64,000 nt of DNA from Waterburya sp. (lineage in GTDB: Bacteria > Cyanobacteriota > Cyanobacteriia > Cyanobacteriales > Xenococcaceae): NCBI GenBank assembly GCA_965217895.1, contig CBDCJV010000002.1:2560001-2624000 (forward strand), given 5' to 3'. Below, in pieces: positions 27,001 to 39,000 of this stretch (the first letter of the stretch is position 1; the number at the start of each line of letters is the position of its first letter). Position numbers: made by a program.

Positions 27001-30000
27001 AGTTTATTAAATTCAAAACTCTATTATCAGTATTTATCAGCTAGTTGAAAAGGATACAAATCACAGTCAGTAAAGATTGCGATCGCTTTACAAATTCCTT
27101 AATCTTTTTGAACGGCATAACATAAGCGTCCAATAGTAGAACCAGACTCATTCATGGAATTAAGAGTAATATTTTTTAGGCTATTCATAAAGTCAGATAA
27201 ATTACTGGTTTTTGAGCCATCACTACCACTATTTAGATTCCACTCACTCCACCAATCAGGTTTTTGTAAATCTTTAGCAGTTACATCAACTTTAAAATAG
27301 TAAATGTTAGATTCAGTCAGATTATTCGGGTTTATAGTTGTAACAAAATTAAGTTGATTATTATCAATTTGCCAATCTTTAAAATTTAAAGCTTTGGCAG
27401 CAGCAGGTGCTTGCTTGAACTGTTGTTTATTAAATTTATCAAATTCACTTACGTCTATGGCTACTTTCAAATCGTTAGGATCGGCTGATAAAGTATGATT
27501 GATTTGCTTTAAAGGTATTTGATATTTTACTTCCAAAGCATCAGCATTTTTATTCTTAATTTCTAATAATTCTATCGGTTGATTGTTCTTTTCTACAGAC
27601 ACATCTCCATTATTTAATAAGCTTGGTGCTGCTAAATCTGATGACAGGTTTAGAGGCGAATTGAGATAGGATACATCGGCAACTAAATTATGTGGTGAAA
27701 AAATTAAAAATTTACTGCGATCGCTCAAGTTTCCTTCTTCTTTGGCTAACTTATCAAAGTAATTCGTAATATCTTGATAGTCGCCGAGAAATAATATGTA
27801 AAATGGTCGATACTGCTTGCTTGTTTTTCCGACCGTATTGTAATTAAACTTTTTATTGGCATCACTGGCAGAATAAACAGTACCATTAAATTCGCTTTTT
27901 ACTGCCCAAATACCTACAGCATAGTTGTTATCTTGACTATTAAAATAATTCTCTTTAATTTTGTTAGCAATTAAATTAACATCACCATCATTTTGTTCTA
28001 AATCTGTAATGATTACCGTCAGGCGATCGCTATTTTTTGGTTTAGTAATCAGAGAACCTAAATCGCTAGAAACAGCAGGGAAAGTAGAATTTGTTCCATC
28101 ATAAAAATCTGACTTGTTAGCTTTACGAAATTCTGAACGAGTTAGTCCTTTAGCTTGATGTTGATAATCTCCAGAACGATAATATTTAACAGTAGATGGA
28201 GAACGCCTACTACTTAAATTTAGAGTACTATCTAATAATTTTAATGCTTGGATATAAGAGCTATTTTCTTGATTTATATAGCCCAACATTGATCCAGAAC
28301 CGTCAATATTAACATCGATAGCTAATGGATTTGTAAGTTCAGCCTGTTGGTCTTTTTGCTCTAATTCACAATGTAAATTAGCATAATCTCCATTGACTGG
28401 CGTTCCTTCTGGCTCTCCTTTAGCAACTGCAACACAGCCAGACAACATACCTACAATAGCCAAATAACTAATATTTCTTTTAAATAAAAACATACTTGTA
28501 GTTAAAAATAAGTTTTAGCAGTTTAGCTAAATTTCAGGGTAAATACCCATAAACATGATGTTTTCAATCAAAAATTTATGAGTTAAATTGTAATTAACTA
28601 ATATTTATTATGACAATAAGCTAAATATATGAAATCAGGAGAAATAACTAGACTAATAATCTGTTTGATTATTGGTGCGTTAATAATTTTTCTCGGACAG
28701 CCAAAACTTTATGATTTAAGAATAGTTAGAATTACTGATATCCCCGATCTTAAAGAATGGATTGGTAGCTACTATATGAATCAAGCTGCTATTGTTTTTG
28801 TAATCTCTTTAATTTCGGTAATTTTTTGGTCTATTTCTGCTGTTCGCTCAAAAGCTAACGGCAGTGAATTAAAAACCTGGCAAGGCGTTTGGTATGCACT
28901 TTTATTTGTTAACGTTTTGAGTATTTTTATTGCTATTTATCTGAATAAGGTCAGTGATGATGCCCTACTTTCATCAATATTTTTCTTACTATTTGATGTG
29001 ATTTGGGTTTTTTGGCTAGGAACAGCTTTAAGTTCACCTAATTTATTTATGTATTTACCCCCAGGTTCGGGAACAATACGCCGAGTTTTTGGAGATTAAA
29101 TTAATGACTATATATCTAGTTGGTATTGGTGGCAGTGGGGCAAAATGTGTAGAGTCAGTAGTGCATTTAGCATCAGTAGGATTGTTTCCTCAAGAGCCAA
29201 TCAAAGTATTATTTGTCGATGCCGACGAAAGTAACGGCAATGTTGAAAGAGCGAGAAATAGTTTAAATATTCAAACTGAATGCCAGCGAATATTATCGGC
29301 AATTGATAAACAACAGTGTCCTTGGATGCAGACATCAATTAAATCTTTCGATCTCTGGTCGCCATTTGCCAAAAATAGTTTAAATAAAGAATTAAGTGCG
29401 TTTTTTAATTACAACAACATTAAACAAAGTGAGCCAGCCTTAGCTAATCTCTTTGATGTTCTCTATACAGACACAGAAAAACAAGAAAATTTAGATGTAG
29501 GTTTTCGTGGTAGACCTGCTATCGGTGCTGCGGTGATGAGTCAAGTAGACCTCAATCGCCTAGATGAAGAACCCTGGGGGACTTTTATCGAACAAATTAG
29601 AGCCGATGTCAACGAAGGTAAACAACCAAAAGTGTTGCTGTGTGGCTCGATCTTTGGCGGTACTGGGGCATCGGGACTACCTACTATTGCTCGCTTGATT
29701 GCTAATAAATTAAACGAGATTAAGATTAGAGAACGAGTCAAGATTGGTTCTGTTTTTATTCTGCCTTATTTTGGCTTTACTGCTCCTGCGGGAGAAAGTG
29801 AAAACGGCATTTATGCTCAGTCGGATAAGTTTTTGCTCAACACAGAAGCAGCACTGCGTTACTATGTCACCCAAGCTCAAGGCATTTTTGATACCGTCTA
29901 TTTATTAGGCAACGAGAATTTAGCTAGGGTTAACTTTAGCATTGGTAAAAATACCCAGTGCAATCAGCCTCATTTTATTGAATTATATGCTGGTCTGGCT

Positions 30001-36000: not shown

Positions 36001-39000
36001 CGAATTATACAATCAACATAAAAATTCATTTAACGAATTTGTAATAGCTACAGTTATAGAGACACAAGAAAGTATGGAAAATCGTTTAGCAGGTCGTTCT
36101 GAAACAGTTTTTCTTTCAAGTATAAGTAAAGGTAACTATTGGATAGTAGAAGAAAACAACAATTCTTATTTAGTTCCTCATGCAAAAATTAGCATCAATG
36201 AACACAATAAACGATATACTATTGAAAATCTTTTTGAGTGTAATGAATCAAGCTCAGGTGATTATAGTTTTCAATTAATTCAGCCAGCAAAGGTTTTAAA
36301 ACTCAATTCGGAATTATGGCAACTTGAGAGAAAAGGCAAAATAGAGTTCATATCAGATAATCACAACAAAATAGACAATACAGAGATTAAAGATAGTCAG
36401 GATACAAAAATAGATTTAAAAACTAAAATATCTCGATTTAGACAAGACTATACTCAAGACATTAAGCTAATCTCTGATCTGATCGTGGCTAAAGTTACAA
36501 TTAGTGTAGAAACTCTATTACAACTTGTAATCTATAAACCCGATCTAATTAAATTAGAAAATAATGCTGATGGTAAGTATTGGATTATTGATTACTTAGG
36601 TGTTTATTGCTTGATACCAAGCGAAATACATCAGATAACTAACGCTACAGAAAAATCCTTAAACGATGCCAAAATCTTATTCGATCTAGTTGGATACTAT
36701 CCTCAATACTCTAGCTATCATTTAATTAAACCTGCAATAGTAACCAAGCTCTCTACGAATCAATGGAAATTGGAAGAAAAAGGTAAATTTAATTTTTCGT
36801 AGATATTGCTAGGCATAAAGTTTGAGTTTTGCTTTATAGGCTAAAAAGCGATCGCACAAGCGCGAGCAAATCTTTCTAAAAGCTGATAGCTATTGATAAA
36901 AGTTTATTATTTAATTTTATAATAACTCTCTTAATTATGATTTATCTTGATTCGGCTTTAATTGAAGAAGCTCAAGCAGCAGTGGCAATGGGCTGGGTAA
37001 AGGGAATTACAACCAATCCAACTCTACTAAATAAAAGCGATCTAGCTCCTGAAGACTGTCTTCAACAATTGACGGCTATCAGTCCTGGAGAACTATATTA
37101 TCAGCTATGTGCCACAGATTTTGAGGCAATGGTTACAGAAGCAAAAAAAGCCCAAGCAATTATTGGCGATAAGCTGGTCTTAAAAATTCCTGCTACTCCA
37201 TTAGGATTTCAGGTTACAGCTTATTTATCATCAGCAATAAATTGTTCGGTAACAGCTATTTATAGTCCTGCCCAAGCAGCAGTTGCTGCCCAGGCGGGAG
37301 CAAAATATGCGATCGCCTACGTAAACCGTGCTACCAGGCTTTTAGGAGATGGTTTAGCACTAGTCAGAGAAATGTCTGATGTACTCAAACATAGCAATAC
37401 TGAAATTCTGGCAGCCAGCCTTAAGTCGCCTGAAGAAGCTGCTGCTACCCTGCAAGCAGGAGCGCATCACCTCACCGTTCCTATGTCAATCTTAGAGGCA
37501 ATGGCAACACATGATTTATCAGATCAGACCGTAACTGAGTTTTTAGATAAGGGCATTGGCATTAGTATTTAAGCTGACGTATTTATTTACTGATATTACG
37601 CAGCATGGGGTCATGGAGTAGTGAGTAAGGAGTATAGAGGAGTAGTGGAGATAGTGAAGCCAAACTACCCCAATTACCCCACTACCCAGTCTTCACAGAT
37701 CAATGAGTGCGTAACATCAGTTATTTAGATAAGGCGATCGCCTGTGCTATCTTATCAAACATATTTGTTACGTCCTGTCCTGTCTTTGCCGAAGTTAGAT
37801 AGGCAGCAATTACTTGTTCACAATCAAAAGAGCTATATGCTTGGCTTAGTTTGTCTAGCTTTTCTTGAGCGACTAAATCAGCCTTGTTTAAACTTATTGC
37901 TATAATGGTTTGAGGATTTACCTCGGAAAAAAGGTTAATATGATTATTTAAATTATTGAGGGTATCTGAGCGAGTCAAATCTCCCACAATAATTGCGGCA
38001 CTTGCACCTTTAAGATAGCTGGGGGTAATTGACTTGAACTTAGTATTACCTTCTAAATCCCAGACCAAAAGATTAATTTGATCGATCTGTGAGTCAGTTT
38101 TGATATTTACTGATTTGCGAGATACCTTAACTCCAACCGTAGACAAATATTGATCGCTAAACTTATCTTCAACAAAGCGTCGAATTAAGCTGGTTTTACC
38201 AACATTAAAATCTCCTATTAAACAAATTTTCTTGGTAATTACTGACATTAGTTAGTTTTTCTTGATATTGCTCGTAGGAATAAATGGTTCAAAGCTTACA
38301 TAACGATCTAACCACGCTGCTTGGTTGTTTGTATTTTGGGAAACATCTAATTTTGTGCAACGAGCCACAAGCTTAGTTGAATCAACTCCTTTGGCAACTA
38401 AGGCTGCCTGGACATTTTGACAACGCTCTTGGTTTAATTTTTGGTTAATTTTGTCTGTACCTTTTCCATCATTATGAGCTATTAATTTGAGATTTAGTTG
38501 GGGATATTGCTCTAAAAACTGGACTACAGAGTCAAGCTTGGCAGAAGTATCGGTAAATTCTAGCCGATTAGATCCTGAATTGAAGTAAATACGTTGTTTT
38601 ACCTTTGGTAACTGCGTATTTACGTTGAGAATTATTTTGGCAATTCCTGGTACTTGCTCGAACAGCTTAAGCATAAATTCTTGCTTTGATAAACTGCTTA
38701 CAGTTCCTTCTATAGTTAAAGTTTTGGTAGGAGATTCATAATTGGTTTTAATCAAGTTATTTGGCTGTTGATTAAATAAGCGAGTCAACCTTTGAACTTC
38801 ACCAGCAACCACATCAGGACTGGGAGAAATCTGAATAGCGATAATTTGGTTATCGAACTGGAGATTATTTTGACTGGCAATTTTTTGTGTAATTGCCCCT
38901 GCCTGATTTTTGAGGTATTCACTCGGAACTCTGCCACTAATAGTTAGTGTTCGATGATTTACATAGGGTTCTAAGCGATAAATAGATAGTTCTGGTGCAG

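Follow-up and report, generated by a model that had tools for sequence, protein, structure and literature searches.

In the window analysed here, a 64,000-nt stretch of the Waterburya sp. genome (contig CBDCJV010000002.1, positions 2,560,001 to 2,624,000), a tubulin-like GTPase is encoded together with a lipoprotein, a four-TM membrane protein, a giant ATPase of the actin/Hsp70 (ASKHA) fold, and two proteins carrying a repeat domain (RD) of ~120 aa. The gene cluster itself is real. We give a probability of about one half to the reading that it forms an envelope-linked, nucleotide-gated assembly switch in biological conflict, sensing phage, predators, or rival cells, because of the RD–ATPase complex score, natural fusions, co-occurrence, decayed effector-bearing paralogues, variable RD number, ATPase exchange, and patchy, partly plasmid-borne spread. 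An earlier note had read the locus as a membrane-attached machine of a tubulin-like and an actin-like NTPase; this is partly supported. By computation, the ATPase has the ASKHA fold and RD is predicted to dock on it; the identification of the tubulin as FtsZl1 is rejected. No description of the cluster was found in the literature searched.

In such a switch, variable RD proteins would be the inputs; many of these combine a periplasmic part with a TM helix and a coiled coil, and others bear a Zn ribbon or WD40 repeats. RD docking would recruit the ATPase and shift its nucleotide state, as exchange factors do on Hsp70. The N-terminal domain of the ATPase would hold the tubulin-like GTPase, and these two with the four-TM protein and the outer vWA-like lipoprotein would make up a membrane-bound assembly. 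Catalytically decayed ATPase paralogues would bring caspase, TIR, or kinase domains via the same RD dock. No effector gene of these types was found in the window or the genome, a point against the conflict reading, so here either the assembly itself or some unlinked protein would be the output.

Gene order and composition of the cluster

The module genes lie where the earlier note had placed them. The GC content of the block is 34.4% and that of the genome 39.1%; no 11-kb window reaches so low a value. The claimed low GC does not extend to the genes of the tubulin (39.8%) and the ATPase (38.5%). The seventh of the family-less genes counted there is real but lies outside the range given for them (27099..36802), at 25667..27016 on the minus strand. 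It encodes an accessory single-pass membrane protein with a coiled coil, a TM helix at about residues 159-177, a periplasmic part, and no matching Pfam family. Residues 158-308 resemble (E about 1e-7) kinase-TM-ARC6/IMS proteins that adjoin the module at other loci. The gene (GC 31.7%) is unconserved across most loci and is possibly part of the island.

The gene order is conserved, as had been claimed, and this far above chance, in 52 loci that were picked by their ATPase and include relatives that are not independent. Among those with room for the gene in question, the tubulin lies upstream of the ATPase in 47 of 49, the four-TM gene in 40 of 47, and the lipoprotein gene in 35/40, with 26 of these showing it divergent. 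RD genes follow the ATPase in 35/36 loci and number one to seven per locus, a variability that counts for a role in conflict. The flanks hold mostly unrelated housekeeping genes rather than defence islands, which counts against it. That the genes merely travel together, with no joint machine, is very improbable: tubulin and ATPase do sit on different contigs amid unrelated genes in two genomes, but the order is retained down to about 25-30% protein identity (loci L031 and L032), natural fusions occur, and the complex test described below was passed.

A short tubulin family and its membrane neighbours

The tubulin gene (29104..30591, plus strand) encodes 495 aa, or 500 aa from an alternative TTG at 29089. 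The reported Pfam Tubulin_2 match was reproduced (E 8.2e-7; 29 bits against a cut-off of 27). The GGTGASG loop and the N-terminal GGxG and GFRGRP motifs are conserved in 93 homologues, where F184-A189 and G191 of the T4 loop, FGGTGASG, are invariant. For the T7 catalytic loop there is only a candidate: D329 of WxDxP, invariant and located after the putative H7. dN/dS is about 0.04. Judged from its sequence, the protein has the tubulin/FtsZ superfamily's T4 loop (GGGTG(S/T)G type) and N-terminal GTPase domain.

The FtsZl1 label did not survive comparison of lengths, bit scores, and profile searches. Short-type frames span 490-563 aa and score 19-40 bits against PF13809, whereas FtsZl1 proteins are mostly 1050-1170 aa long and score 200-386 bits. 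The FtsZl1 architecture of about 1100 aa with an extended coiled coil and a helical C-domain is ruled out for a protein of 495 aa. A short-type profile retrieved no long FtsZl1 at E<=1e-4, the best blastp match to canonical FtsZl1 had an E-value of 0.003, and HHalign (92.6%) covered the N-terminal GTPase part only. We conclude, at the level of sequence, that this tubulin of 495 aa belongs to a short family of its own, separate from FtsZl1.

The lipoprotein gene (27099..28493, minus strand) lies before the tubulin gene as the earlier note had said and is transcribed divergently, away from the other genes, a point not made there. Its product probably carries a vWA domain, with a MIDAS-like D64-G-S-G-S68 and a later T163-D164. 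C20, D64, S68, and D164 are invariant in 16 orthologues, of which 15 have a lipobox-like motif and all 16 a DxSxS or DxTxS motif. VWA_2 matched one of the 16 weakly (E 0.07), and the best three named ESM Atlas matches are all vWA, a lead with scores of only 0.78-0.79. The neighbouring gene (28629..29099, plus strand; dN/dS 0.04-0.07) encodes a 156-aa protein with four hydrophobic peaks, likely the membrane anchor of the NTPases.

Operons joining FtsZl1 (Tubulin_2, PF13809) with vWA proteins have been described (Makarova & Koonin, 2010; PMC2875224). As far as the available part of that source goes, the cluster shares with them a divergent tubulin GTPase, a neighbour (here only putatively vWA-type) with a MIDAS-like motif, membrane proteins, and patchy spread. 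In contrast to FtsZl1, the short tubulin is half as long, lacks the coiled coil, and is only remotely similar; the cluster core has no P-loop GTPase or OmpA and has instead a fixed giant ASKHA partner and an RD array. Whether that paper lists the present neighbours had been left open; the table in its available part holds a single DnaK neighbour and a single GrpE neighbour, both within different architectures.

The giant ATPase and its predicted docking with RD

The ATPase gene (30712..33954, plus strand) encodes 1080 aa from its ATG, comprising an N-domain (1-270), a beta-rich middle (275-530), an ASKHA core (537-944), and a C-terminal extension. Where earlier AF2 models had been poor, a good one (pLDDT 90.9, pTM 0.82) now shows a two-lobed RNase H-like fold at 537-944, bearing out the ASKHA call. 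The sub-threshold Pfam matches recurred (FtsA 2.5e-5, MreB 3.6e-4), and phosphate-1, phosphate-2, connect, and adenosine motifs are all present. Two of the motifs listed previously were found, G543-x-D545-F-G-T-S-F and C749-x-D751-x-G-G-x-T-x-D-I-S-x-W762; the third reads YVGGNAS, not YxGGNGS. D545, G547, E728, D751, G753, D758, G883, and E934 are invariant in 70 diverse homologues, and the ATPase profile at E<0.1 matched ASKHA chains only. Foldseek ranked DnaK, Hsp110, and BiP domains first, and VIA placed MreB, PilM, ParM, BeeR, FtsA, and CorM among its top matches. Structural matches mostly stop near 944; BiP and Sse1 rows reach 1054 and 981, adding few aligned residues. On this modelling, an actin/Hsp70 (ASKHA) nucleotide-binding domain spans residues 537-944. 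SrfB (PF07520) was rejected as an identity, with no match for the ATPase and one among 44 homologues (E 0.017; 13.6 bits against a cut-off of 27.1). The N-terminal domain (1-270) probably binds tubulin; two natural tubulin–ATPase fusions were found, each on one contig, which limits their weight for the conflict reading.

The two coiled-coil proteins reported to consist of a ~120-aa domain do contain it, in one and three copies. The first (34056..34964, plus strand) has a Zn ribbon, a coiled coil, and one RD (residues about 183-301); the second (35021..36802, plus strand), with no Pfam family, has three (97-216, 325-444, and 476-592) linked by coiled coils and is a potential multivalent scaffold. 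Neither has a clear TM helix, which counts against a conflict switch; a TM precedes RD in 40 of 125 RD genes. The RD model from the first gene (pLDDT 93.2, pTM 0.87) has no solved fold match; GrpE accounts for 4 of its 23 VIA rows, including the top two, and a coiled coil precedes RD as in GrpE.

This same RD copy and the ATPase gave a complex score of 0.74, against 0.00 for the best control. The mark it passed is reached by 116/157 solved and 2/215 mismatched pairs, counts that hold roughly because the complex run used its own alignments. The runs share at least 89% of contacts, with partner pLDDT of at least 84, and place the site on the ATPase at 577-597, 632-633, and 821-822. RD is thus predicted to bind helix 577-587 and nearby loops and to touch 821-822. 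From strand and helix order in Hsc70, we take these regions to be subdomains IB and IIB at the rim of the nucleotide cleft; in IIB only two residues contact RD, which gives an exchange-factor role a weak basis. Six natural RD–ATPase fusions exist (five stored proteins and locus L147). Counting against a conflict switch, residues of the predicted interface show lower conservation (0.37 in RD, 0.26 in the ATPase) than the average column (0.43 and 0.46, respectively).

The Foldseek ranking and the GrpE-like features of RD would also suit a dedicated Hsp70-like chaperone or export system, in which RD is a GrpE-like co-factor or client tag and RD-bearing surface proteins are folded, held, or exported. 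In DnaK–GrpE, GrpE enters the cleft as a wedge and shifts subdomain IIB (PMC4753570, available part), and the cluster shares with that pair an Hsp70-like nucleotide domain and a coiled-coil partner with a small domain that docks, in the case of RD by prediction, at the cleft. Unlike in that pair, neither a substrate-binding domain nor a J protein is evident (no J-domain in 34 neighbour proteins scanned), and RD is at most GrpE-like. We regard this explanation as quite unlikely.

Paralogues, distribution, and known systems

Of 204 full-length ATPases, 186 have an intact phosphate-2 motif, versus one of 14 with a replaced N-domain. In these paralogues the RD-binding helix is kept (0.77 match to consensus) and the ATP motif lost (0.41); nine group as sisters of a full-length copy (support 0.99 or more). 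Their effector domains are caspase (7), TIR (2), and kinase (2). Such domains are often shuffled in cyanobacteria, which counts against a conflict role.

Among 401 genomes, 31 have the tubulin, all with the ATPase, which occurs in 33. RD accompanies the ATPase in 31 of the 33 and occurs without an ATPase match in six genomes (two of these weak), again a point against. The system is missing from most members of the families that have it, and it is sometimes on plasmids and often broken, which counts in favour, as do an iSTAND-MoxR-vWA trio inserted in one related locus and a weak Double-GTPase (DO-GTPase)-like neighbour in locus L153. In PADLOC 2023, six of seven proteins had no match, and weak LmuB, JetC, DruC, and ZorA matches were confined to the coiled coil of a single RD protein, which counts against the conflict reading.

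FtsZ and FtsA are an adjacent tubulin-fold GTPase and actin-fold ATPase (FtsA about 400 aa) that act at the membrane and are generally described as essential and universal. The cluster resembles them in this pairing, so the claim of a new kind of tubulin–actin partnership has a precedent; it differs in being patchy, and FtsZ–FtsA is not known to come with an RD array or with effectors on pseudo-ATPases. A machine of this sort, for an accessory cytoskeleton or for membrane remodelling, with TM-RD proteins tethering the ATPase and tubulin filaments anchored for shape, adhesion, sheath, or vesicles, seems to us rather unlikely. The VIA matches of the ATPase, the TM before many RDs, and the ARC6/IMS-domain membrane proteins beside several loci fit it, as does strong purifying selection on the core genes, which counts against a conflict switch; the small share of genomes, even within carrier families, together with frequent decay, the variability of RD arrays, the apparent exchange of alleles, and pseudo-ATPases that bear effectors, suits housekeeping poorly. 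Membrane remodelling was proposed for FtsZl1 in 2010 (PMC2875224, available part). CorMR of Anabaena differs in being ParMR-derived, about 340 aa, and without a tubulin partner (10.1101/2025.06.27.661541, available part).

The ATPase gene appears recombinant, its C-terminal half coming from a different lineage, and apparent exchange of an ATPase half in three strain sets counts for the conflict reading. The C-half and the first RD are both nearer to L002 than to the strains sharing the N-half, as would be expected if surface RD receptors and the lipoprotein sensed neighbour cells in kin- or self-recognition, with ATPase-plus-RD haplotypes as compatibility types. Receptor-like RD proteins diverge fast and the lipoprotein is vWA-like, yet the predicted RD-binding helix is nearly constant among haplotypes and unicellular as well as filamentous named taxa carry the system; we consider this improbable.

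For a conflict switch, a close comparison is with GAP1-N2 Double-GTPase systems, which occur with tubulin or with HSP70 and GrpE and for which an EAD adaptor principle is described (Kaur et al., 2020; PMC7159879). In the available part of that source, these have in common with the cluster predicted NTP-gated near-membrane assemblies, vWA or vWA-like proteins, variable arrays, a small adaptor domain repeated on partners, and caspase/TIR/kinase modules. In those systems tubulin and HSP70 form themes that do not overlap, mostly in Firmicutes/Actinobacteria, and GAP1 and DO-GTPase are required; the cluster, in contrast, combines tubulin and an Hsp70 fold without them (no Pfam match to either among its seven genes), and the predicted binding partner of RD is the ATPase, not RD itself. 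More tentatively, the module may be an undescribed innate-immune machine in which the new-fold RD of trans-envelope receptors is the nucleotide-exchange trigger, the ATPase nucleates a tubulin polymer, dead-ATPase copies that arise repeatedly bring caspase, TIR, or kinase domains to the RD dock, and ATPase–receptor haplotypes are swapped between strains.

With the cluster come two unnamed families, one of tubulins and one of giant ASKHA proteins, and a ~120-aa domain for which no structural relative has been solved; the predicted RD–ATPase link is testable at residue level. If the reading is true, it would be a second tubulin–actin partnership beside FtsZ–FtsA, with a non-GrpE partner at a nucleotide cleft and effector-bearing pseudo-ATPases, and would bear on the recruitment of cytoskeletal and chaperone folds into immunity. 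It would also make a long-untested FtsZ-like (Tubulin_2) branch accessible to experiment. Plasmids of Gloeothece and Picosynechococcus strains in culture carry copies that look intact, and genetics is therefore feasible.

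Gene order and distribution

Six genes occupy the positions that the earlier note had reported: the lipoprotein gene (27099-28493, minus strand) points away from the 4-TM gene (28629-29099), the tubulin gene (29104-30591), the ATPase gene (30712-33954) and two genes (34056-34964 and 35021-36802) encoding a ~120-aa repeat domain (RD). A seventh gene without family lies directly upstream of this module. The reported Pfam values were reproduced on re-search, and NCBIfam added weak matches only (MreB, FtsA, EutJ). The description of a low-GC block holds for the block as a whole (34.4% GC vs 39.1% for the genome) but not for the tubulin and ATPase genes, which are at the genome level. 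These two genes share one reading frame; the gap between them (30592-30665) contains two short GC-rich palindromes of the GTAGGGGCG...CGCCCCTAC type, which we take to resemble REP-type repeats. A second, weak GrpE-like match of this genome is far from the window (G000:C2:27279-27704).

The conserved order that had been claimed was seen again in 23 ATPase-bearing loci from a genome scan, all carrying cyanobacterial names. These, the window, one plasmid, five metagenome contigs and 22 genome regions constituted a 52-locus set, from which two duplicates, one paralogue-only contig and 71 weak metagenome matches were excluded. In this set, tubulin was upstream of the ATPase in 47 of 49 loci with room, as were the 4-TM gene in 40 of 47 with room and the lipoprotein gene in 35 of 40 (divergent in 26 of those 35), and one to seven RD genes lay downstream in 35 of 36. 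In one sample of the phylum, the ATPase was found in 33 of 401 genomes, tubulin in 31, all within those 33, and RD in 37, including 31 of the 33; the locus, genome and homologue counts on conservation all include non-independent kin. The ATPase was also found on five plasmids and on no phage record, and two of ten full-length homologues looked up bear the names Nitrospirota and Pyrinomonadaceae. Two distant metagenome loci (L031 and L032) keep lipoprotein, small membrane gene, tubulin and ATPase in this succession, and at several loci the module is frameshifted, split or interrupted. RD genes also stand alone outside the module (L209-L214), some in genomes without an ATPase match; L212 is a remnant of lipoprotein plus RD.

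Tubulin and lipoprotein

The GTP-binding loops of the tubulin are conserved (93 homologues). Its assignment to FtsZl1 had to be rejected: the protein has 495 aa, whereas FtsZl1 proteins as defined in 2010 have 732-1393 aa and mostly a coiled coil (PMC2875224). In the same genomes, PF13809 scores were 200-386 bits for canonical FtsZl1 and 19-40 bits for this short type, whose profile recovered none of the canonical proteins there; HHalign confined the alignment to the GTPase part (92.6%). The module gene order is absent from the FtsZl1 sheet of the 2010 neighbour table (PMC2875224); supplement 1 of that paper also has an entry from Cyanothece PCC 7822 that could not be placed in either type. 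OmpA and GTPase neighbours are known from FtsZl1 loci, but among 24 module loci just two have them. In the window (37721-40591), two genes read from sequence as coding for a small Ras-like GTPase and an OmpA-like membrane protein lie just downstream of the module; homologues are near it in L018 (28-1526).

The lipoprotein is likely a vWA protein, judging from motifs plus weak leads. A lipobox-like motif was found in 15 of 16 orthologues and DxSxS or DxTxS in all 16, with D64, S68 and D164 invariant.

ATPase copies, fusions and apparent exchange

Of the proteins collected, two fuse tubulin to the whole ATPase, and five fuse RD to the ATPase (RD ahead in three, behind in two), with a sixth in locus L147. 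Among 268 ATPase homologues, 254 span the core. Of the full-length ones, 186 of 204 retain an intact phosphate-2 motif; so do 1 of 14 in which the first ~270 residues are replaced, 5 of 16 that are short and N-less (fragments among them) and 13 of the remaining 20. The replacement is a caspase in 4 of 30 odd-length proteins scanned and in three more by precomputed labels; others include TIR (2) and kinase (2). Nine N-less copies or pairs were sister to a full-length copy (support at least 0.99; FastTree, 76 sequences), pointing to repeated origin of such copies. In 26 N-less copies the predicted RD-binding helix is retained (0.77 to consensus vs 0.62 for the full-length set, which has more distant members), whereas phosphate-2 is decayed (0.41 vs 0.90). 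The N-domain may thus bind tubulin, and dead copies may attach effectors to the predicted RD dock. In L150 (1410-9566), an iSTAND-MoxR-vWA trio has been inserted between tubulin and the ATPase. This ATPase has also grown by ~270 residues at its N-terminus and looks as though it had become the effector of the ternary system by capture.

Compared with the related loci L001 and L005, ATPase dS was 0.2-0.7 in the first 500 codons and 0.9-2.0 thereafter. The protein matches L001 and L002 at 96% and 72%, respectively, over residues 1-270 and at 70% and 88% over residues 520-1080; for the first RD the values are 45% and 60%. The same ATPase split recurs in L012/L014/L015 and L135/L136/L138. Tubulin and the 4-TM gene are under strong purifying selection (dN/dS 0.04-0.07). 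An ATPase half seems to swap as a cassette while these two genes stay, and the next RD gene probably travels with it.

Proposed working and neighbouring genes

We favour, at a probability of about 0.5, a conflict switch in which varied RD proteins, envelope-spanning and soluble, would detect threat and dock on the ATPase, controlling its nucleotide state through putative exchange. The ATPase would bind tubulin, which may polymerise, at a membrane site formed by the 4-TM protein and the lipoprotein, and effectors would be joined through pseudo-ATPases in some lineages. What computation shows is the folds, the linkage of the genes, the fusions and a single predicted RD-ATPase interface. Against a defence role, the module locus in the window's genome has no effector gene, PADLOC gave no meaningful match, and the flanks are mostly housekeeping genes. 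An accessory cytoskeleton or remodelling machine is about half as probable as the switch; a dedicated chaperone/export system is improbable, and kin recognition slightly more so. In anatomy, the module is most like FtsZ-FtsA.

Closest in working to the proposed switch are the tubulin- or HSP70/GrpE-bearing conflict loci of Kaur 2020. The module is a member of neither those loci nor FtsZ-FtsA: GAP1 and DO-GTPase are missing from it, the two NTPases occur side by side, and its tubulin is of a different family. It is real, of the predicted tubulin-vWA conflict/remodelling kind, described by no paper found in the literature searched, and directly testable by experiment.

In separate lineages, kinase-TM-ARC6/IMS or RING-TM-IMS proteins lie beside the module (L011, 2687-5707; L139, 13364-16533; L142, 957-1844), accompanied in L011 and L139 by a beta-lactamase-like serine hydrolase. 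Three related loci have genes read from sequence as Uma2-like endonucleases between tubulin and ATPase (L134, 13185-13745; L136, 6857-7462; L137, 5800-6363). Downstream of its RD array, locus L153 (3556-5321) carries Double-GTPase-like genes together with a peptidoglycan-binding membrane protein. In the distant metagenome locus L032 (1-3592), genes like those of type I restriction-modification systems and a gene for a KOW/NusG-like antiterminator come before the module copy.
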